Notes: generated from the letters alone by a model not told the origin. DNA of 64,000 bases from Candidatus Thorarchaeota archaeon (GCA_046482545.1 JAWOEX010000010.1:79849-143848); one strand, 5' to 3'. Counted from the first letter of the stretch, positions 7,422-31,658 are shown. Program-made: numbers and translations.

Positions 7422-8822
7422 TTGACAAAGAGATTTACTCCCTCCGGGGTAATGCCCGCACTTGTTACACCATTCACTAGACATGGTGATATACATGAAG
7501 AGGGCCTCAAGGAGGTAATAGATTACACTATTGAGAAAGGGTGTACGGGGGTGGTTCCTGCAGGAACCACCGGTGAATTTGTCTACATGCGAACTGAAGA
7601 GAGAAAGAAGTTACTCAAACTGACAGTAGAACATGTGGATGGCCGTGTCCCTGTGGTAGCTGGAACTGGACAGAACAGCACCCGCGCCACAATCAGCCTT
7701 ACAAAGTACGCTGCTGATTTGGGCTGTGATGCAGCTCTGGTTGTTTCACCTTTCTTCTTGCGCCCAGATGATAAAGGGTACTACCAACATTATGCAGATG
7801 TAGCAAGAGAAGGGAATCTTCCTGTAATCCTGTATAATATCCCTCAATGTACCCTTGGGACCCTACAATCCAACGTCGTTCAGGATTTGGCGGATCTCGA
7901 CAATATCGTTGGAATCAAGGATAGTGGAGGGGATATCGGTCATACAATGGAACTAATACAGAAGGTTAGTGACAGAATCCCTGTCCTGATAGGACATGAT
8001 GAGTGCTTCCTCTCAGCAGTATCTGCTGGAGCTAGCGCTGCTATTATGGCTTCAGCAAATATTATGCCACATATCTGGCTGGAAATAATGGAGTGTGTCC
8101 AGAACGGAAACTTCGAGAAAGCACGAAAAATGCAACTGGATGCTCAGACGCTTGCCAGAATAGTCACAAGAAATGGGGGTGCTCCACCTGTGAAGGCTGC
8201 CCTCAAAATGATGGGTATTGAAGCGGGATATTCTCGAATGCCACTTGATTCTGGAGGAACACTTACACGGGAACTGAAGGAAGAAATCAGATTGGAGCTT
8301 GAAAAGCTTGGCCTGATAGAAACTCCAACTAGGTCACCACTTCAGGAAAAGCCTGACGTACGGAAATTAGCTACCGACCTTGGCTTTGAGAATCCCGATT
8401 TTGAAGGGTGTAGATTCGCTACAGCGGCGAATGATACAGTCTCGGTGACTGTTGTTACTGGAAAGAAGAAATCAGCAATTGGAGATTTCTTTGTAAGGCT
8501 ACTCACCACACCCAAACAGGGCTATGAAGGGCTTACCGTTATTCTAGAGCCAAATTTGGCGGTAAAACCGAGCTCATTAATGGTTCCTGCCAGAGGAATA
8601 CAATCCATGCGTCAAGCTTCTCTTTTCTATGGCCCCGTTCAATCCGGTGCTGCTAAGGCGATAGCAGCCACAGTGGAATCTGGTGCTATAAGCGAAGAGA
8701 GAATCGACGACACGTTGATGATTCTAATGCTAGATGTGAACTTGGACTCGCGTGACCGCAGGAAGATAGTCACAGCCACGGAAGAAGTAGTCGCTGAAGC
8801 AATGAGTTCTATTTGGAGCTGA
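7422..8822 (+). CDS. DapA/NAL-family class I aldolase fused to a C-terminal Fae-like domain that lacks the HxxxH motif
   Basis: N-terminus has ALVTPF, PAGTTGEF and the Schiff-base region IVGIKDSGGD. C-terminal ~160 aa aligns to formaldehyde-activating enzyme (LTVILEPNLAVKPSSLMVP, FYGPVQSGAAKAIAATVESGAI) but has no EVAH motif. TTG start. Confidence 0.75.
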   Translation: MTKRFTPSGVMPALVTPFTRHGDIHEEGLKEVIDYTIEKGCTGVVPAGTTGEFVYMRTEERKKLLKLTVEHVDGRVPVVAGTGQNSTRATISLTKYAADLGCDAALVVSPFFLRPDDKGYYQHYADVAREGNLPVILYNIPQCTLGTLQSNVVQDLADLDNIVGIKDSGGDIGHTMELIQKVSDRIPVLIGHDECFLSAVSAGASAAIMASANIMPHIWLEIMECVQNGNFEKARKMQLDAQTLARIVTRNGGAPPVKAALKMMGIEAGYSRMPLDSGGTLTRELKEEIRLELEKLGLIETPTRSPLQEKPDVRKLATDLGFENPDFEGCRFATAANDTVSVTVVTGKKKSAIGDFFVRLLTTPKQGYEGLTVILEPNLAVKPSSLMVPARGIQSMRQASLFYGPVQSGAAKAIAATVESGAISEERIDDTLMILMLDVNLDSRDRRKIVTATEEVVAEAMSSIWS

Positions 8823-8826
8823 GAAA

Positions 8827-10302
8827 ATGAGTGATGATTTTAAGTTTCAAGGTGTCTATCCGGCCCTCGTTACACCTTTTGACGAGGGCGGCGTGAACGC
8901 ATCGCAGTACAAGGGTTTGATTGAGCATTTGATTGGAAGGGGCGCGACTGGAATTGTTCCTTGCGGTACAACCGGTGAGTTTACCAGTATGACTTTTGAT
9001 GAGCGTTTGCAAGCCATCCGAATCGCATGTGAGACAGCTGCGGGACGCGTACCCGTCATGGCTGGTACAGGTGCCCCATACACGGCAGATGCGGTCAAAC
9101 TCACTCGACGAGCAGCTGAATTGGGAGCGGATGCTGCTCTAGTGGTTACTCCATATTTCCTTAAGCCCTCCACAAAGGAAATCTACGAACACTACACGCG
9201 AGTAGCTGAGGCCAGTGACCTCCCCATCTTTCTGTACAATATTCCGCAAGTAACAGGAATCAAGCTGGACTGGAAACTGGTCGATGGCTTACAAGAAATA
9301 GATGGTATTGCTGGCATGAAAGATTCTAGTGGCGATCTGGTTAACCTTACAACCATTCTATTGCGACGCCCTCATGATTTTCAGGTTGTTGTAGGCCATG
9401 ATGAAGTGGCATTTCCTGCTCTTGCGGCGGGTTGTGATGGAGCCATACTCATGAGTGCAAATGTCTTTCCTAATCGATACATTCAGATGCAAAGTGCTCT
9501 GTCAAGAGGGAATCTCAAAGATGCGAAGATTGTGCAAAGGACGATTCAAAAGACTGTACGCCTCCTTGTCAATAAGGGGGGTGCAATCGCAGTCAAAACT
9601 GCATTGAATATGATGGGCATAAATGTTGGAGATGCTCGGAAACCTCTTCTCGAAGGTGATTTGTTTAGTTTTGAGGATCTTGATGAGCTCAGGACATGCT
9701 TAGAGGATTTGCAGCTGATTCCAAGAGGACCTGTGACATTCAAGATGGGCAATCGGGAAATAGTTGCCGAACAATATCCAAAGGCTGCAGGAATTGTTGC
9801 TGATGTTGTTGATGACTTGACACTCCTGCATGGAGAATCTCTGTGCGGTGGTGGTCATGAGGTCGCCCATGTTGATTTGGTGATGGGTATCAAGACAGGT
9901 CCAATGCAACAGGCTTTAGAAACAGCAGATAAGATAGTAAAGGGTTTCCATCAGTCAAACATTATCAAAAATCTTCAGCCAACAACGGTCTTTGCGCCTA
10001 CAGTGAATATCACTGATGAAGCCCACAAAGAAATGGTATATGATGTAGCCGAGAAAGCAGTCGCTGATGCGGTTACCAGAACTGTGACAGATCAAATCAT
10101 ACCCGAGGAACTTGTTCCTGATCTCGTCATTGCGGTTAACGCCTTTGTTCACCCTGCTGCTAATAACAAGCGTAGGGTGCACATCAATAATTTCCGCGCT
10201 GTTCGGCATGCTCTTAGACGCGCTATTGAAGGACGACCTGATATTTCTACAGTCATAGAACAGAAGAACTCATCTCGGCATCCTTTTGCCTATGGTCCAT
10301 AA
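8827..10302 (+). CDS. DapA/NAL-family class I aldolase fused to a complete Fae (formaldehyde-activating enzyme) domain
   Basis: N-terminus has ALVTPF, PCGTTGEF and IAGMKDSSGD. C-terminus has GESLCGGGHEVAHVDLVMG ... AVNAFVHPAANNKRRV ... EQKNSSRHPF, which is canonical Fae. GGAG RBS 8 nt upstream. Lies 4 nt after the paralog. Confidence 0.8.
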   Translation: MSDDFKFQGVYPALVTPFDEGGVNASQYKGLIEHLIGRGATGIVPCGTTGEFTSMTFDERLQAIRIACETAAGRVPVMAGTGAPYTADAVKLTRRAAELGADAALVVTPYFLKPSTKEIYEHYTRVAEASDLPIFLYNIPQVTGIKLDWKLVDGLQEIDGIAGMKDSSGDLVNLTTILLRRPHDFQVVVGHDEVAFPALAAGCDGAILMSANVFPNRYIQMQSALSRGNLKDAKIVQRTIQKTVRLLVNKGGAIAVKTALNMMGINVGDARKPLLEGDLFSFEDLDELRTCLEDLQLIPRGPVTFKMGNREIVAEQYPKAAGIVADVVDDLTLLHGESLCGGGHEVAHVDLVMGIKTGPMQQALETADKIVKGFHQSNIIKNLQPTTVFAPTVNITDEAHKEMVYDVAEKAVADAVTRTVTDQIIPEELVPDLVIAVNAFVHPAANNKRRVHINNFRAVRHALRRAIEGRPDISTVIEQKNSSRHPFAYGP

Positions 10303-24433: not shown

Positions 24434-25210
24434 TTGGAAATATGCCTAACAAATGATGACGGAGCAGACCATCCAGGCTTGCTCAAGTTGGCAGCCAATC
24501 TCAGTGAGATAGGCAATGTCACAGTAATTGTACCAAGCAATCAGCGGAGTGCAACAGGAAAGGCACTCACCCTCAATAGTCCCATTAGAATAAGCGAAGG
24601 AATATTGAAAGATGATTATAGGATGATTAAACATTCTGGATTGCCAGCGGATTCCGTTATATTGGCGAAGGCATTTATGACTAATATTGACCTAGTAGTT
24701 GCAGGGATAAATGGGGGTGCAAATTTGGGCTATCAGAGTATGCTAACAAGTGGAACGGTAGGAGCTGTAATGGAAGGGGCGATTATGGAAATCCCAGGGA
24801 TTGCATTTTCTATGGTGGTTGAGCCGCATGAATGGTTCAATTCCCATGGTGTACAAGAGAATTACCAAAAGGCAGCTGAAATTGCGACAAGTATTGTTGA
24901 AAAAGTCTTGAACAAGAAACTTCCAGAAGGAATAGACGCAATCAACGTCAACTTCCCGGCAGAAATAGAGAATGATACTGAAACCATAATCACAAAGCCA
25001 GCGAAGGTACGTATCAAGAATGAGCTCGATAGGCGCATAGATCCCAACGGCAGCCCTTACTATTGGTTGAAGGGGGTAACGGCAGACGCCCCAACTGGTA
25101 CTGATGCCAGTGAAGTACTGCAGAATGGGAATATCTCAATCTCGCCGATAATAATCGATACAGTTGAAGAGAAGGAGACTAAACAACTCAGGTATCTACT
25201 CTCTCATTGA
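24434..25210 (+). CDS. surE: 5'/3'-nucleotidase SurE
   Basis: ICLTNDDGADHPGL N-terminus and SurE core. TTG start with GGAG 10 nt upstream. Confidence 0.9.
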   Translation: MEICLTNDDGADHPGLLKLAANLSEIGNVTVIVPSNQRSATGKALTLNSPIRISEGILKDDYRMIKHSGLPADSVILAKAFMTNIDLVVAGINGGANLGYQSMLTSGTVGAVMEGAIMEIPGIAFSMVVEPHEWFNSHGVQENYQKAAEIATSIVEKVLNKKLPEGIDAINVNFPAEIENDTETIITKPAKVRIKNELDRRIDPNGSPYYWLKGVTADAPTGTDASEVLQNGNISISPIIIDTVEEKETKQLRYLLSH

Positions 25211-26300
25211 GTGTGCTTAATGCATTCCATAATGCATCTGTATCATATCTTTCAACATGATGCGACTGGAAGTCTTCGACAAGCAGTCTCGTTTCCGTGT
25301 CATTAGATATGGTGCCAATTATGGTGGCTTGGATGCCCCTCTCCTCAATTGCATGTACGACTTCTTCGGCATAACCAGATGAACAGGTTATCAACATACA
25401 ACCACTGCTTATCAAATTGAGCCAATCCACTCCAATTGCGTCGCATATTGCGGTTGTTGCTGGATGAAAGGGAATACTCTCCAAGTTCACTTCAAAACCA
25501 ACATCACTTGCATCACATAGTTCGTGCAAGCCACCAGAAATCCCGCCTTCTGTCGGATCGTGCATTGCAGTTACGTGGCCGGTTCCAAAAGCCGTAAGGC
25601 CCTCCTCAACAACGCTAATCTTATCTCGGATTGCGATTCCCTCCTCGACCAAATCTATACCAATGACTTCAGTTAGATATTCACGTCCTTCTGAAGCCAG
25701 AATTGCGGTTCCCTCGATGGCAGCGGTCTTTGTCATAACAATTGCATCCCCCGGTTGCGCCCCACTTGATGTCACATATTCTCCAGGATTAGTCAACCCC
25801 AGCATAAATCCAGCTATTATAGGACGCGGAAGACCCTGAGTTATCTCTGTGTGTCCACCAGCTACCGAAATACCTAGAGAGTCTGTCGCTTCGTTAATCT
25901 GTTGCATAATTTTGGCTAAGTCATCTTCATTAGACGCTTCGGGCAGCATAATCGAGTTCAGGAACCATTTCGGAGCCACTCCGAAGGTTGCTATATCATT
26001 GGCATTTACGTGCACAGATAGCCATCCTGCATCTTCTATCGAGCCAGTTATAGGATCAGTTGCCGCCACAAGCACCTTGTCACCAAACCGAATCAGGCAA
26101 GCATCTTGTCCAATACCTGGACCGAGAATCAGATCTGAATCTTCCTTTCCGAGGTGAGTGAAAACGAGCTCCTTGAGCATCTTGGGGGGAATTTTTCCGG
26201 GCAACAACGTTTCATTCTCCATTCTGTCGCTTGCATGAATATTGGTATGGATATCAAATTTGAGTATCATCACAACGGAAGGCGATGAATTCAGCTGCAC
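25188..26300 (-). CDS. PurM-like (AIR-synthase-related, HypE/SelD/ThiL superfamily) protein
   Basis: N-terminus GPGIGQDACLIRFGDKVLVAATDP (PurM N-domain) and a C-terminal PurM-C-like fold. Lies 50 bp downstream of the ChlI-ChlD fusion on the same strand. Confidence 0.65.
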   Translation of the reverse strand: MQLNSSPSVVMILKFDIHTNIHASDRMENETLLPGKIPPKMLKELVFTHLGKEDSDLILGPGIGQDACLIRFGDKVLVAATDPITGSIEDAGWLSVHVNANDIATFGVAPKWFLNSIMLPEASNEDDLAKIMQQINEATDSLGISVAGGHTEITQGLPRPIIAGFMLGLTNPGEYVTSSGAQPGDAIVMTKTAAIEGTAILASEGREYLTEVIGIDLVEEGIAIRDKISVVEEGLTAFGTGHVTAMHDPTEGGISGGLHELCDASDVGFEVNLESIPFHPATTAICDAIGVDWLNLISSGCMLITCSSGYAEEVVHAIEERGIQATIIGTISNDTETRLLVEDFQSHHVERYDTDALWNALSTLNERVDT

Positions 26301-26350
26301 AGTTCATACAAATTCCTGTGAGTGTGTTGGGGTTAATAATTCAATCGAGT

Positions 26351-29017
26351 CTATTGCAGGTAGCCACTGACGTCCTTCAGGTCGTGAGCCTGCAACGAGG
26401 GGGTATTAGCGGCAGCCTCTAGTAGGGTATCGATTACCGAATCTGCGCGTGTTACTTCTGTACAAAGCAGAGCCCGACTCCCAGCGATTTTTGCTACAAG
26501 GTAGGCACCGAATTCTTTCCGGAACGCTGAAACTGATAGAATTGTCTCAATTGGATCCGAGTGGCCCTCTTTGCGCATGCGAAGATATGTAGCAAGTTCC
26601 AATGCCTGATGATAGGGCCGCTTCAAGATGGAACTCCACTTGATTTGGTTTCGGTTCACATTGACAGGTACAACCGGCACATCGTTTTTCTTCAAAATAC
26701 GCGTGGACTTGATGATGTCGCGTACTGGTGTATATCTAGGATGACCTGGGCCTGCAGATTGTTCTAGTGGGATATTGGGCGCAAAATCGGAGAGAAGAAC
26801 AACTAATGGTTGAACTCCTCGATTCCTCATCCGCTCTCGTTTCACAGTCTCAAGTGATTTCATAAGTCCCTCAGCCAAAGGAGTCAATCCTGAAATCCTG
26901 AGCTTTAGAAGAGCACGATATAGACGATTCCAGTTTGTTGTTGGAGCCTGAACCTCAATGGCTCCGCTATCCTTGAAGGCGATAATCCCTACACGATCCT
27001 TGGAACCGCGCGTTTCATCCTCAATTCGTTGCACAATCTCACGAATATGTTTCAGACTTCCTTTGATAGACATACTCACATCTATGACGAGCAGAACTGT
27101 CAGTGGTGTCTTGCCCGAGAATATTCGTTCTCTCAAATCCGATTTTGTAATCTGCAGGTAATCAGTGTCATCAATTTGGCCAGTTCTGGCAACAGCTGCA
27201 ACTAACGACGCAGGAAGATCTATGCTCTGAACCTCCCCTACAGGTATCCGTGATCTTGTGGAGCGACCATGTTGGGCGATTTCCGAAGATTGCATCGAAC
27301 CCACAGAACGAGTCGAACGATTTTTTCTAGACCATGCACCGGAAGTGACTCTGGACCGCACCAGTGACCTCTTCTGAATCTCTTCCTTCTCAAAAACAGG
27401 TTCACCAGCATCAAGGTCAGGAGTCTTAACGAAAAACGTATTTTCGAGGTCCAAAGGTGGTTGACGGATGTCTGACTTGGATCCAATTACTTCAGATTTC
27501 TCCGTCTCACTGTATTGCCCAGTGGCTATCCCCCATTCATCTCCCGCTTGTGGTTCTGCCTTGCCGGGTTCGACTACATCAATACCTGCTGCAGGACCAC
27601 TCTTTCGTTTCTGCATGGTCCGAAGCCACCGTCGGATAGTTAGAGCAATGAGTGGGACATAGATTACTGCGTTCAAAACGAGTAGCGGCGGAGGAGGAAA
27701 GACTCCAATCCCAGATCCAAAGAGAATATTGAGGGGACTCAGGTAAATCCAAGCAAAGAAACCAAAGAAAGCAACCATCATGACAACAAGGATAGTTCCT
27801 CTAATCGGAAGGCCTCTAGGATTCCTTACTTTCGACGTTTTTTTTTTGCCTTCTTGGCCTCCCCATGCGGCAAACGAAGACTGTCTTCCGAATTTCCACC
27901 CGCTCTTTCGTTCATCAGTCTCTTCTGAGGAAGCTGGCACTTCGGTGGGCGATTTCCTTTCATCGTCAGTCTTGGTGATGTCCGCAGCCCGAGTAATTGC
28001 TTTATCAATCTCGGAAGGAGACGGAGGTTCCAAGAGACCGCCGCGCCGTGTCCTGTGACTAAGCGCCAGTTGAGCTCCAAGCTTCATATCTTCCAAAGTA
28101 ACGTATTTCCGTCCTTGGAAGGCTGCGTGGGTTATAGCCGCCTTACTGATAACAATATCAGGTCTGACTCCATCAACCTCTAGAGCATCACAAGCCATTG
28201 CTATTGCCCGTAATTTGGATTCACTAAATACAATTCCGTCAAGAATATCTCTAGCTTTGACAATTCGCTCCCGCAGCTGTGCTTGCAGCTCGGACCACTT
28301 TTCTCTAAATTCCTTAGGATTCTGCTCAAATTCAAGATTCCGTCGAACTAATTGCATCCGTTCTTCAATTGAATGCCCACCTCCCACAGATACATGCAAA
28401 GGGAATCGATCCAACAATTGAGGTCTGAGCTCTCCTTCTTCTGGATTCATAGAACCCATCAATACAAAATCTGCAGGATGGGAGACGGATATACCTTCAC
28501 GCTGTACAACATTAACTTTCGTTGCTGCCGCGTCAAGTAAATCGTCAACAAGGTGATCAGGAAGCAGATTGACCTCATCAACATACAGAATATTCTGATT
28601 GGCCTCTGCCAGAATTCCCGGCTGCAATGCCCGAATTCCTTCTTGGAGTATACGTTCTATATCGAGAGAGCCCACAAGGCGATCTTCGGTTGTCGAAAGC
28701 GGGAGATTAACGACGCGCATCTTCCGTTTTTCAGTCGAGAGAGACTCACCTGATTCAACCCTTGCTCGACAATCAGCACAGAGGAGTTCCTCATTCAAAG
28801 GGTTGCAGCTAAAGGGGCAATCGCTTACGACTTCCACTTTAGGCAACAGGTCGGCTAACGCCCTGACAATAGTTGTCTTGCCGGTACCCTTGGCTCCAGA
28901 AACCAACACGCCTCCAATTCGCGGATTGACACCATTCAGAATCAGAGCAATCTTTAGTCGTTCCAGTCCCACTAGAGCGGTGAATGGTAGAACAGACCTT
29001 CCGCGAGGCTCACTCAC
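26351..29017 (-). CDS. ChlI/BchI-type AAA+ ATPase fused via a linker containing two TM helices to a ChlD-type vWA domain
   Basis: N-terminus LPFTALVGLERLKIALILNGVNPRIGGVLVSGAKGTGKTT...CPFSCNP...ILYVDEVNLL. Mid-protein TM segments GTILVVMMVAFFGFFAWIYL / VFPPPPLLVLNAVIYVPLIALTI. C-terminal vWA with MIDAS LLVIDVSMSIKG...GLTPLAEG. Confidence 0.8.
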   Translation of the reverse strand: MSEPRGRSVLPFTALVGLERLKIALILNGVNPRIGGVLVSGAKGTGKTTIVRALADLLPKVEVVSDCPFSCNPLNEELLCADCRARVESGESLSTEKRKMRVVNLPLSTTEDRLVGSLDIERILQEGIRALQPGILAEANQNILYVDEVNLLPDHLVDDLLDAAATKVNVVQREGISVSHPADFVLMGSMNPEEGELRPQLLDRFPLHVSVGGGHSIEERMQLVRRNLEFEQNPKEFREKWSELQAQLRERIVKARDILDGIVFSESKLRAIAMACDALEVDGVRPDIVISKAAITHAAFQGRKYVTLEDMKLGAQLALSHRTRRGGLLEPPSPSEIDKAITRAADITKTDDERKSPTEVPASSEETDERKSGWKFGRQSSFAAWGGQEGKKKTSKVRNPRGLPIRGTILVVMMVAFFGFFAWIYLSPLNILFGSGIGVFPPPPLLVLNAVIYVPLIALTIRRWLRTMQKRKSGPAAGIDVVEPGKAEPQAGDEWGIATGQYSETEKSEVIGSKSDIRQPPLDLENTFFVKTPDLDAGEPVFEKEEIQKRSLVRSRVTSGAWSRKNRSTRSVGSMQSSEIAQHGRSTRSRIPVGEVQSIDLPASLVAAVARTGQIDDTDYLQITKSDLRERIFSGKTPLTVLLVIDVSMSIKGSLKHIREIVQRIEDETRGSKDRVGIIAFKDSGAIEVQAPTTNWNRLYRALLKLRISGLTPLAEGLMKSLETVKRERMRNRGVQPLVVLLSDFAPNIPLEQSAGPGHPRYTPVRDIIKSTRILKKNDVPVVPVNVNRNQIKWSSILKRPYHQALELATYLRMRKEGHSDPIETILSVSAFRKEFGAYLVAKIAGSRALLCTEVTRADSVIDTLLEAAANTPSLQAHDLKDVSGYLQ

Positions 29018-29100: not shown

Positions 29101-30249
29101 ATGACCTCACGAATGACTCATCTTCACTGTCCAAACTGTGGAAAGAAATACAAGGCTGAACCCGGAATTTCATACTGCTCATGCGGCTCTCCCATTTTTG
29201 CACAATATGATATCAAAGCTGTTTCGGAGGATATTGCAAACAATGATTTCCCCGGAAGGGAGAATTCGATGTGGAGATATGCCAGTCTGTTACCTGTTGA
29301 CTCGCGAAGAGCTGTCACATTGGGTGAAGGTTGGACTCCTTTACTTTCATCAAAACGTATCCATGAATACATGGGCCTAGAATCGGTCTATATCAAGCAA
29401 GAATCGCAAAACCCTACGTTGAGCTTCAAAGATCGTGGACTCAGTGCCGCTATCTCCAAACACACTCAACTTCGGAGCAACCATTTTGTAATTCCATCAG
29501 CAGGTAATGCAGCCATATCCATGTCAGCTTATGCTGCAGCTGCTGGGGCTCTAGCGACAGTTTACATGCCTGAAAATACACATGAGTCATTTTTCCAAGC
29601 TTGTTCCCAATATGGAACAGAAGTCATTGCTGTGAAAGGAACTATCGCAGATTGCGGTACAGCGGTACAGAAAAATGAGGGGGTTTGGACCGATATCTCA
29701 ACAACAAAAGAGCCATTTCGGGTGGAAGGTAAGAAAACACTAGGTTTCGAAATATGTGAACAGATGAACTGGTCACTTCCTGAAGTGATTATCTGTCCTA
29801 CCGGCGGAGGAACCGCACTTCTCGGTATATGGAAAGGAATACAGGAGCTTGAGAATGTGGGACTCATCGATGGGACCCGGCCCCGTATGTTTGCAGCGCA
29901 GAGTGATGGTTGTGCGCCCGTCGTCCGAGCGTTCAAAGCCGGATCCAAGACAATTGAGCCTTGGGAAGATAGTGAGACAAAGGCCTTAGGTCTGCGTGTT
30001 CCAAAACCATTCGCAGATGAATTGATTCTAGATATACTGCGAGAGTCAGAAGGAGGAGCAGTAGCAGTAGATGAAAAATCGATTGGAAAAACTAGACGAT
30101 TAGTAGCAGAAGACGAGGGTATTGATATGTGCCCCGAAGCTGCGGTGGCTATCGCTGGAGCAAAGAAACTTGTTGAACAGAGAAACATAGACAAGAATGA
30201 AGATGTCGTGGTTCTGAACACCGGTTCAGGGGTCAGATATCCAAGCTAG
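29101..30249 (+). CDS. thrC: Threonine synthase (archaeal type with N-terminal zinc ribbon)
   Basis: CPNCGKKY...CSCGS ribbon, then PLP motif SFKDRG. Confidence 0.9.
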   Translation: MTSRMTHLHCPNCGKKYKAEPGISYCSCGSPIFAQYDIKAVSEDIANNDFPGRENSMWRYASLLPVDSRRAVTLGEGWTPLLSSKRIHEYMGLESVYIKQESQNPTLSFKDRGLSAAISKHTQLRSNHFVIPSAGNAAISMSAYAAAAGALATVYMPENTHESFFQACSQYGTEVIAVKGTIADCGTAVQKNEGVWTDISTTKEPFRVEGKKTLGFEICEQMNWSLPEVIICPTGGGTALLGIWKGIQELENVGLIDGTRPRMFAAQSDGCAPVVRAFKAGSKTIEPWEDSETKALGLRVPKPFADELILDILRESEGGAVAVDEKSIGKTRRLVAEDEGIDMCPEAAVAIAGAKKLVEQRNIDKNEDVVVLNTGSGVRYPS

Positions 30250-30918: not shown

Positions 30919-31569
30919 TTATGAACTTCGCTCTCGTTCAGTGCGTGCTTCTTCTTCCAACTCTAGTAGAAGCTCCTCAACCCTATTAGAAGCAGCCTCA
31001 TTTCGTTGCTTCACAGCCGCCTGTTGCTTCTCGACCGATGGAACAGCAGTTTTTTTCTCCATAAGAACTTCGGCTTCAATATTGCTCAGCCGTTTCTCAA
31101 TCTGTTCTTCTTCCGCAATAGTTGTTCCTGACCCAACTAAATCCTCTGATAGGAGCTCACTCGATATGGACACTCGCTCCAGAGAATCTGAGAGTTTATC
31201 CATTTCTTCCTGAATTTCAGCAGGTGAAAGCATATCCCGAGCTTGATTCAATGCCCGGTTTGCAGTGCGAAGGGTTTTGAGAATCCTGGTCTGATCGCTA
31301 GATTCTTCTATGCTCATCAATGCAGATTGAAGAGTCTGGAATTGCTGCTGATACCTACCAAGTCTCTTCTCAAGGTCAACCGCTACTCCAAGATGAGTTC
31401 TGGCTACGCTTTTGTTTCCTTGTTTTACAGCCTTCTTCGCTGCACGATGCTCCTCGGAAATACGGGTTTCGAGCTTCCTTATGCGGAGAGTGATAGCGTT
31501 CATAGTCCCTTTAATCTCTAGAATTCCTCTCTCGGCATCAACTTCCTTCTTGCCGCTTAGGAAACCCAT
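30919..31569 (-). CDS. ESCRT-III / Snf7 (CHMP)-family protein
   Basis: MGFLSGKK N-terminus. KKAVKQGNKSVARTHL...DLEKRL...QTLQSALMSIEE...TLRTANRALNQ...MLSPAEIQEEMDKLSD aligns with the Snf7 core. Acidic C-terminal tail. Confidence 0.75.
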   Translation of the reverse strand: MGFLSGKKEVDAERGILEIKGTMNAITLRIRKLETRISEEHRAAKKAVKQGNKSVARTHLGVAVDLEKRLGRYQQQFQTLQSALMSIEESSDQTRILKTLRTANRALNQARDMLSPAEIQEEMDKLSDSLERVSISSELLSEDLVGSGTTIAEEEQIEKRLSNIEAEVLMEKKTAVPSVEKQQAAVKQRNEAASNRVEELLLELEEEARTERERSS

Positions 31570-31658
31570 AATGTGCACCAGTCCGGTTCTACAACCTGTC
31601 TCCTCAGCGAGAGCATTTAAACGATTGGACTATCCAGACATATAACGGAAGTCTCAGC

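Follow-up and report, generated by a model that had tools for sequence, protein, structure and literature searches.

How is a gene to be read that resembles the small and the medium subunit of a tetrapyrrole chelatase at once, that appears to encode a membrane anchor between its two halves and that has no large catalytic subunit as a neighbour? This question is raised by a stretch of 64,000 nucleotides (nt) from a Candidatus Thorarchaeota archaeon (GCA_046482545.1, JAWOEX010000010.1:79849-143848), in the following called the window, which carries an open reading frame (ORF) of 888 amino acids (aa) with a ChlI-type AAA+ module and a ChlD-type vWA domain. We consider it likely that this gene is a motor-adaptor gene of the fs-chlD/ChlID class with a membrane hairpin, from which slippage on a poly-A run yields two products that form a membrane-tethered I/D complex. 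In the Thorarchaeota lineage, a ChlI-like ATPase in soluble form and a ChlD-like adaptor held at the membrane would in this way probably come from a single locus.

Domain architecture of the ChlID-type protein

In the 888-aa protein, a ChlI-type AAA+ module is followed by a two-helix hydrophobic hairpin, then by an AAPxQ-like motif and finally by a vWA domain with its metal-ion-dependent adhesion site (MIDAS) (Table 1). Pfam matches comprise AAA_lid_2, AAA_5, Mg_chelatase and VWA_2. In a PDB sequence search, the N-terminal module was collinear with and about 50% identical to Synechocystis ChlI (6l8d), and a Foldseek search with an AlphaFold2 (AF2) model built with 46 homologues placed BchI/ChlI at the top, with TM-scores (target) of 0.8-0.9. 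Both Walker motifs, A (GAKGTGKTT, aa 41-49) and B (ILYVDEVNLL, aa 143-152), are intact and do not vary within the family, and the module also has the ChlI-specific insertions and the lid domain that belong to a ChlI/BchI-type AAA+ motor. The four cysteines of a CxxxC-x8-CxxC motif in the AAA+ insertion are invariant across the archaeal family, whereas their counterparts in cyanobacterial ChlI are D/S/S/E. This motif may represent a metal-binding knuckle.

The C-terminal half has the features of a ChlD/BchD-type adaptor, namely a C-terminal vWA domain with an intact MIDAS site and an AAPxQ region ahead of it. Residues 644-756 match the BchD vWA domain of 2x31 (E=1e-6, PDB sequence search), the MIDAS residues D646/S648/S650, T712 and D744 are all invariant in the family, and the AF2 model is confident over aa 640-870. 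PF26791 ('AAPxQ') is annotated on homologues, and we placed it on the window segment by alignment and inference. An initial annotation, made from the sequence of the window alone, had described an intact ChlI-type AAA+ module and a ChlD-type vWA/MIDAS domain in one 888-aa protein. The profile matches that it had proposed as a check (Mg_chelatase and VWA) were both obtained, and the PDB and Foldseek matches agree with them. What it had called a fusion is indeed a single AAA+/vWA chain, but this arrangement is not novel, as it is the known 'ChlID' architecture of TIGR02442 and fs-chlD; only the hairpin is unusual.

Table 1 Features of the ChlID-type gene and of the gene downstream of it, in window coordinates.
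Feature	Position	Strand	Details and basis
ChlID-type ORF, GTG start, 888 aa	26351..29017	-	Long 'D-type' product, in frame in the window copy
ChlI/BchI-type AAA+ motor module, aa 7-346	27980..28999	-	PDB match to ChlI 6l8d, E=2e-100
CxxxC-x8-CxxC motif (C67, C71, C80, C83), aa 67-83	28769..28819	-	Alignment
A10 run (T10 on the plus strand) coding GKKK(T) at the ChlI-module/hairpin junction, putative slippery (recoding) site	27838..27847	-	
TAA, +1 frame, ancestral zero-frame stop of the short ChlI-like product	27826..27828	-	Conserved in relatives
TAG, -1 frame	27816..27818	-	Stop reached with an additional A or after a -1 slip
Hydrophobic helix 1, aa 408-433, predicted transmembrane	27719..27796	-	Hydropathy, K/R-rich N-terminal flank, AF2 helix
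Hydrophobic helix 2, aa 445-461, predicted transmembrane	27635..27685	-	Hydropathy, AF2; PPPP loop before, RRWLRTMQKRK after
AAPxQ-like motif SIDLPASLVAAVARTGQ ahead of the vWA domain, as in ChlD-type proteins	27176..27226	-	Conserved alignment columns
vWA domain with intact MIDAS site	26408..27103	-	Pfam VWA_2, 2x31 match, AF2
PurM-superfamily gene (AIRS + AIRS_C)	25188..26222	-	Probable start ATG 26222; longest ORF to 26300

A poly-A run at the junction of the two halves

The ChlI module and the hairpin meet at a junction spelled GGC-A10-CG, and its A10 run is the sole homopolymer of at least 9 nt in the window. To place this run in context, we fetched 80 loci from one-genome-per-species contigs with the C-terminal half as query and compared the frames of the two halves in 61 Thorarchaeota-type rows (about 60 genomes, with a few duplicates among the rows). 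A run of A7-A11 stands at the identical column in these rows. The downstream half lies in the -1 frame in 51 of them (A9 in 40, A10 in seven, A11 in three and A7 in one), in the +1 frame in four (A9 in three, A8 in one) and in frame in six (three each with A10 and A11). Where the gene is split, the zero-frame stop usually follows 4-5 codons past the run (GKKKLRRK*), giving a ChlI-like protein of about 395 aa. This stop, either TAA or TGA, falls within -1-frame codons that are conserved and spell K-[VI]-R-N-P.

Lysine codons elsewhere in the same genes are AAA in only 42% of cases, whereas those in the run are all AAA, which shows that selection acts on the run as a nucleotide sequence. Downstream of it, the -1-frame peptide K[VI]RNPRGxPIKGT is conserved. 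Of the 54 split loci, 48 have this peptide upstream of the first ATG of its frame, and 39 have it upstream of any ATG, GTG or TTG. The peptide can therefore only be made by ribosomes that start in the ChlI frame and shift within the run. In about nine loci a -1-frame stop directly abuts the 5' side of the run, so that the shift must happen inside it. As judged from the aligned loci, the conservation of the -1-frame peptide ahead of any start codon shows purifying selection. A poly-A (A_AAA_AAR) site straight after the AAA+ module and under purifying selection, as in fs-chlD genes, is thus present in this family. The recoding site had escaped the initial annotation and changes the reading of the gene.

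The published record offers a direct precedent. A set of 23 'magnesium chelatase' fs-genes that need a -1 shift at poly-A runs was reported by Antonov et al. (2013), with efficiencies of 63% (A11), 40% (A9) and 10% (A7) in E. coli reporters, and the authors also noted in-frame fused relatives (PMC3711429). Such poly-A -1 shifts occur in bacteria as well as in Methanocaldococcus and Methanococcus (PMC3711429; PMC5009743), and the A_AAA_AAR site has been summarised by Atkins et al. (2016; PMC5009743). Since the run is found in all three codon phases and a few +1 configurations occur, transcriptional slippage appears at least as likely as ribosomal -1 frameshifting for the Thorarchaeota genes.

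The in-frame genotype of the window

The window copy represents the rare in-frame genotype. Its nearest relative (L094, 96.5% nt identity) reads GGC-A9-GCA-CGTCG at the junction, with the zero-frame end GKKKARRK*, and the window reads GGC-A10-CGTCG. Compared with L094, the window has lost 2 nt (GC), and this deletion both joins the frames and makes the run longer. As this is a deletion and not a mere change in run length, we regard the window copy as a genuine genotype rather than a homopolymer miscount. A downstream half in another frame, as is typical of fs-chlD genes, is found in 55 of the 61 rows, including L094, and not in the window.

The short ChlI-like subunit could still arise from this genotype as a slipped product. 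A window mRNA with one A fewer would restore the ancestral stop and encode a 396-aa protein ending in GKKKRRK*, and one extra A or a -1 slip would result in a 400-aa protein ending in GKKKNVESKES*.

A predicted membrane hairpin in the linker

The linker between the two halves holds two hydrophobic segments with Kyte-Doolittle 19-residue mean peaks of 2.34 (aa 408-433) and 2.02 (aa 443-461). Their outer flanks are rich in K/R and contain zero acidic residues. The AF2 model places helices at aa 405-433 and 443-472 between disordered linkers, with a predicted local distance difference test (pLDDT) score below 50 in the linkers and of about 45-75 over the hairpin helices. We assigned these segments as transmembrane (TM) helices on the basis of hydropathy, charge distribution and the AF2 helices. 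By these measures the region corresponds to an integral-membrane hairpin (two helices of at least 17 residues, positive-inside flanks, conservation) and not to the soluble acidic/proline-rich linker of ChlD. The initial annotation had described two TM helices flanked by a PPPP stretch. The hydrophobic helices stand, but the four prolines (aa 441-444) do not flank both of them and instead lie in the short loop where TM2 begins. Because both outer flanks of the hairpin are positively charged, the simplest topology would leave both globular domains, AAA+ and vWA, in the cytoplasm.

The hairpin is conserved in the Thorarchaeota homologues, both fused and split; where the gene is split, the vWA ORF begins with it. 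A clade of 850-880-aa proteins, mostly from Hermodarchaeota, conserves it as well, and many metagenomic relatives have it too. A library search with the C-terminal half returned one 50%-cluster representative each for the Thorarchaeota and Hermodarchaeota types, and at least 21 further full-length ChlID-like 50%-cluster representatives (735-1060 aa), some of them from Bathyarchaeota, have strong hydrophobic segments at aa 370-470. The classical soluble ChlID types of 600-680 aa have no hydrophobic segments at the hairpin position. In the literature we found no description of a membrane-anchored ChlD or of an Asgard chelatase family. The new element is the hairpin that replaces the soluble acidic/proline linker of ChlD. 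The fusion and the poly-A recoding were already known; the novelty lies in this anchor, its distribution in Asgard archaea and Bathyarchaeota and the orphan status of the gene.

Related genes in Hermodarchaeota and Bathyarchaeota

The Hermodarchaeota genes (L080-L092) are in frame and conserve CGT TTT TTY GGA at the position equivalent to the Thorarchaeota run (window 27838-27847). A -1-frame stop lies four codons past CGT TTT TTY and persists despite a change of the encoded residue (CCT AGN or CCT AAA). This pattern suggests that Hermodarchaeota may make the short subunit by a -1 slip. On a complete Bathyarchaeota chromosome (CP070659, L093:6901-10616), a 354-aa chlI lies directly upstream of an 871-aa TM-bearing ChlD-like gene. 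A separate chlI beside a TM-bearing ChlD speaks for the anchored D subunit depending on a free I subunit, and it is a third way, besides recoding, of supplying both.

In the Hermodarchaeota-type loci L003 (10652-11314) and L009 (12640-13302), a conserved unannotated gene of about 220 aa directly follows the TM-bearing ChlID gene, and after it come a DUF4350 gene and a Cdc48-type AAA ATPase. The hairpin-less ChlID homologues of the Bathyarchaeia loci L007 and L008 have ABC-transporter genes upstream and are followed by a conserved, convergent hypothetical gene of the PRK04286 family (about 327 aa; L007:12966-13952, L008:12393-13376).

A model for two products from one gene

Taken together, we propose that two proteins with a common ChlI-type AAA+ module are made from this gene. 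The short one, a soluble 'I' subunit of about 395-400 aa, would end just past the poly-A run. The long one would read on through the hairpin to the AAPxQ motif and the vWA/MIDAS adaptor and form a 'D' subunit of about 880 aa. Both would come about because the A9-A11 run makes either the polymerase slip (transcriptional slippage) or the ribosome change frame (-1 frameshift). The genes of most relatives have the short form in frame and would need a slip for the long form, and in the window, where the 2-nt deletion has brought the long form into frame, the retained A10 run would supply the short one. With the K/R-rich flanks of the hairpin keeping the AAA+ and vWA domains in the cytoplasm, the I/D ATPase-adaptor complex would be held at the membrane and could offer the MIDAS site to a client without a gene in its vicinity. 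This client is probably not a tetrapyrrole.

Several points weigh against this model. The case for slippage in Asgard cells is built on conservation and on E. coli reporter data for other members of the family, and the TM status of the hairpin stands on hydropathy and on AF2 helices at pLDDT 45-75. Four loci need a +1 rather than a -1 shift, some of which may be assembly errors: there are N's in L070, and the N-terminal match of L020 is only partial. RNAalifold detected zero conserved pairs downstream of the run in 41 aligned junctions, which removes the classical argument of a frameshift stimulator, although the lack of a conserved structure fits transcriptional slippage. Finally, as the long form is in frame in the window, production of the short form is the weaker inference there.

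Beyond this, it may be speculated that the membrane-tethered I/D pair is no tetrapyrrole chelatase but a free-standing AAA+/vWA machine, widespread among Asgard archaea and Bathyarchaeota, which remodels or metallates a membrane-associated client via its MIDAS site and whose motor-to-adaptor ratio is set by slippage on poly-A (Thorarchaeota) or poly-U (Hermodarchaeota). We hold this extension only tentatively and would rather bet against it; if true, the prokaryotes most closely related to eukaryotes would have a conserved assembly under the control of recoding. Well-documented cases of archaeal recoding are very few (PMC8211752), and the present family would add a deeply conserved one. Most Thorarchaeota annotations split the gene into an 'AAA ATPase' and a 'VWA protein', and taking the recoding site into account would put right about 60 annotations at species level. 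A natural series for the evolution of two-product genes is formed by the genotypes in frame (window), at -1 (most Thorarchaeota) and in frame with a U-run (Hermodarchaeota). As to function, the role of ChlI/ChlD proteins without ChlH/CobN is described as unresolved (PMC9227772). The membrane anchor narrows the search for a client, and a MIDAS domain at the membrane provides a testable handle.

The PurM-like neighbour and the conserved gene order

A gene of the PurM superfamily follows the ChlID gene on the same strand, as the initial annotation had stated. The distance of 50 bp given there applies only to the longest ORF. The homologues align from Met27, which leaves a gap of about 128 nt to the ChlID stop, and an AT-rich stretch in this gap could be a promoter of the PurM-like gene itself. 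The AF2 model of the encoded protein has a pLDDT of 91. Foldseek found HypE as its closest relative, with a TM-score of about 0.77 barely ahead of SelD and ThiL. The NCBIfam scores remain below the respective cut-offs for HypE (TIGR02124, 109.5 of 251.6 bits), ThiL (TIGR01379, 96.6 of 184.15 bits) and SelD (TIGR00476, 90.2 of 125 bits). The protein shares the AIRS + AIRS_C fold with these enzymes, but its C-terminus (...LNERVDT) has no Cys as in HypE, and the N-terminal Cys/Sec-Lys loop of SelD is missing. A specific identity as HypE, SelD or ThiL was rejected, since NCBIfam, PDB search and AF2 with Foldseek single out none of the three.

In all 56 Thorarchaeota loci with enough flanking sequence, the PurM-like gene directly follows ChlID on the same strand at a distance of about 100-190 nt. 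Other neighbours are equally constant in this lineage, namely ThrC (47/47), SurE (53/53), HAD (40/40) and Snf7 (39/40), and the adjacency therefore shows only thorarchaeotal synteny. Close homologues are all labelled Thorarchaeota or Promethearchaeota, and the gene order IMPase-Snf7-HAD-ThrC-ChlID-PurM-SurE-WecB is that of Thorarchaeota genomes, among which synteny has been noted by others (PMC6737245). Both point to a Thorarchaeota-type Asgard archaeon as the source of the window. The complete Thorarchaeota genome CP070761 carries the ChlID gene, and one Thorarchaeota genome (CP070658) keeps the PurM-like gene and SurE and lacks ChlID at this locus. Outside the lineage, Hermodarchaeota-type loci have only a PurM-family gene of 26-27% identity about 3.5-5 kb upstream, next to ThiN and a methyltransferase, which we rejected as an orthologue because an identity of about 27% indicates a paralogue. 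In the Bathyarchaeia/Bathyarchaeota loci L007, L008 and L093 no AIRS-family gene is called within about 8-10 kb, and tblastn with the PurM-like gene gave no match in L007 and L008. The pairing that the initial annotation had proposed to look for in related genomes is thus a constant feature of Thorarchaeota which does not extend to the Hermodarchaeota and Bathyarchaeia loci. After the synteny control, we rejected co-conservation as evidence of linkage, and membership of the PurM-like gene in the ChlID system is unproven.

Some further observations concern the same block and the rest of the window. The PurM-like and SurE ORFs run towards each other and overlap by 23 nt at their 3' ends (25188-25210), and this pair is intact in a Thorarchaeota locus without ChlID (L010). 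The Snf7 gene of the block, at 30919-31578 on the minus strand, is of the Snf7/ESCRT-III type. Several Thorarchaeota genomes (L001, L011, L012) have a Na/Ca-exchanger gene between HAD and ThrC, which is lacking in the window (30246-30249, where the HAD and ThrC genes end) and its close relatives L094-L097. Elsewhere in the window, at 7422-8822 and 8827-10302 on the plus strand, tandem paralogous ORFs each combine a DHDPS-family domain (PF00701) with a C-terminal formaldehyde-activating-enzyme (Fae) domain (PF08714), an unusual fusion.

Weighing of alternative explanations

The most obvious alternative is that the gene encodes the small as well as the medium subunit of an ATP-dependent chelatase for cobalt or another tetrapyrrole, with a CobN/ChlH-type large subunit elsewhere in the genome. 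The best NCBIfam match is indeed TIGR02442 ('putative cobaltochelatase'), the I module aligns collinearly with ChlI and the D module with BchD, and fs-chlD genes serve CobN in some B12 producers (PMC9227772). However, the TIGR02442 score of 536.4 bits, spread over two stretches, remains below the cut-off of 779.45, and the association with CobN or B12 genes that this family implies is not seen in the window or in the flanks of the homologous loci. No CobN/ChlH-like ORF is present in the window, in which the largest ORF is that of 888 aa and the big ORFs match other families, and gene tables for the flanks (about 14-20 kb) of about 90 homologous loci list neither CobN/ChlH nor B12 genes. The search for such a partner that the initial annotation had suggested was therefore negative within the window and these flanks. 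In addition, no complete corrinoid pathway has been reported for Loki- and Thorarchaeota genomes (PMC6737245), Bathyarchaeota metagenome-assembled genomes (MAGs) with chlD/chlI are mostly without cobalamin genes (PMC7110647), and orphan chlD genes without a large subunit are a recognised class (PMC9227772), so that we consider a cobaltochelatase rather unlikely. A role of the gene as a true magnesium chelatase I/D pair in the synthesis of (bacterio)chlorophyll has a virtually negligible probability. Although sequence and fold are closest to ChlI/BchI and BchD and automatic names read 'Mg-chelatase subunit ChlI/ChlD', the scores are below the equivalog cut-offs of BchI-ChlI (TIGR02030, 393.3 versus 466.95 bits) and BchD-ChlD (294 versus 500 bits), there is no ChlH or other chlorophyll gene in the window, and the hairpin linker is unlike that of any characterised ChlD. 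The host lineage, a sediment Asgard archaeon, has no known photopigment pathway, which counts further against this function. A defence-system reading was discarded as well; PADLOC gave only a weak generic AAA match.

Two other explanations concern the run and the neighbourhood. The run could be functionless if chlI and the TM-vWA gene were translated independently, or if assembly errors or decay had separated the frames, in which case the window ORF would be a mere fusion. In most relatives gene callers report two ORFs, homopolymer lengths can be wrong in MAG assemblies, and a conserved Met inside TM1 might serve this reading. Yet the arrangement recurs in about 50 species-level genomes from many independent assemblies, the -1-frame peptide is conserved ahead of any start codon, the Lys codons of the run are exclusively AAA, the -1-frame codons around the zero-frame stop are conserved, the 2-nt deletion sets the window apart from its nearest relative by more than run length, and an experimental precedent exists in the gene family (PMC3711429), all of which makes a functionless run very improbable. 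The shared pattern of the roughly 50 genomes, the 2-nt deletion and the conserved -1-frame peptide likewise led us to reject homopolymer sequencing errors as the source of the frame differences. The initial annotation, in turn, had combined the membrane AAA+/vWA protein and the PurM-like enzyme into a module for metal insertion or cofactor maturation. The invariable adjacency in Thorarchaeota, the different PurM-family gene upstream in Hermodarchaeota-type loci and the structural proximity to HypE, a maturation enzyme, would be in line with such a module. Nevertheless, it finds no support beyond lineage-wide synteny and appears improbable: four other neighbours are just as constant, CP070658 retains the PurM-like gene without ChlID, the Hermodarchaeota gene is a distant paralogue in a different context, the Bathyarchaeia/Bathyarchaeota loci lack a called AIRS-family gene, the gap may hold a separate promoter, and the protein reaches no curated cut-off and lacks the C-terminal Cys of HypE.

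Comparison with known systems

The model of a two-product motor-adaptor gene with a membrane hairpin can be compared with several known systems, the closest of which is fs-chlD. Kuznetsov et al. (2022) described it as one gene that gives small (I-like) and medium (D) subunits, and some of its carriers have neither ChlH/CobN nor either of the two pathways (PMC9227772). Common to both are a ChlI-type AAA+ module joined through a linker to a vWA domain within one gene, a poly-A (A7-A11) site just past the AAA+ module, two overlapping or adjacent ORFs that need a -1 shift for the small and medium subunits, in-frame fused relatives, and carriers without CobN/ChlH. Archaeal carriers were also known before (Methanocaldococcus, Methanococcus). 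The genes described here differ in the two-helix hairpin of the linker, which would make the long product an integral membrane protein and may set it apart from those of the published archaeal fs-chlD genes, in their Asgard (Thorarchaeota/Hermodarchaeota) lineage, which is not mentioned in PMC3711429, PMC5009743 or PMC9227772, in the in-frame window copy and in the lack of a conserved downstream RNA structure.

With ChlID (TIGR02442)/CobN-ChlID, ChlI-ChlD-ChlH and CobS-CobT-CobN, the protein shares the logic of an AAA+ hexamer motor and a vWA/MIDAS adaptor. Its N-terminal module is about 50% identical to ChlI, and its AAPxQ-like motif and vWA domain are as in ChlD. Unlike these systems, it stays below the curated cut-offs and has no neighbouring large catalytic subunit, and compared with ChlID and ChlD it has a membrane hairpin in place of the acidic/Pro-rich linker and four invariant Cys in the AAA+ insertion.

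The MoxR-vWA pairs (NorQ/NorD, CoxD/CoxE, CbbQ/CbbO) offer a functional analogy, as in these an AAA+ protein and a vWA/MIDAS protein act on a client protein and not on a tetrapyrrole, and some clients are membrane enzymes. The AAA+ clade found here is nevertheless ChlI/BchI and not MoxR (Pfam bpMoxR 17.9 versus 27 bits), and a client gene of that kind is not adjacent. A last parallel is provided by dnaX, of which tau and gamma are made by a frameshift at A AAA AAG in E. coli and by transcriptional slippage on A9 in Thermus, the two products sharing the AAA+ module. Although the proteins are unrelated, dnaX and the Thorarchaeota gene resemble each other in slippage on an A-run and in a short form without the C-terminal interaction domains.

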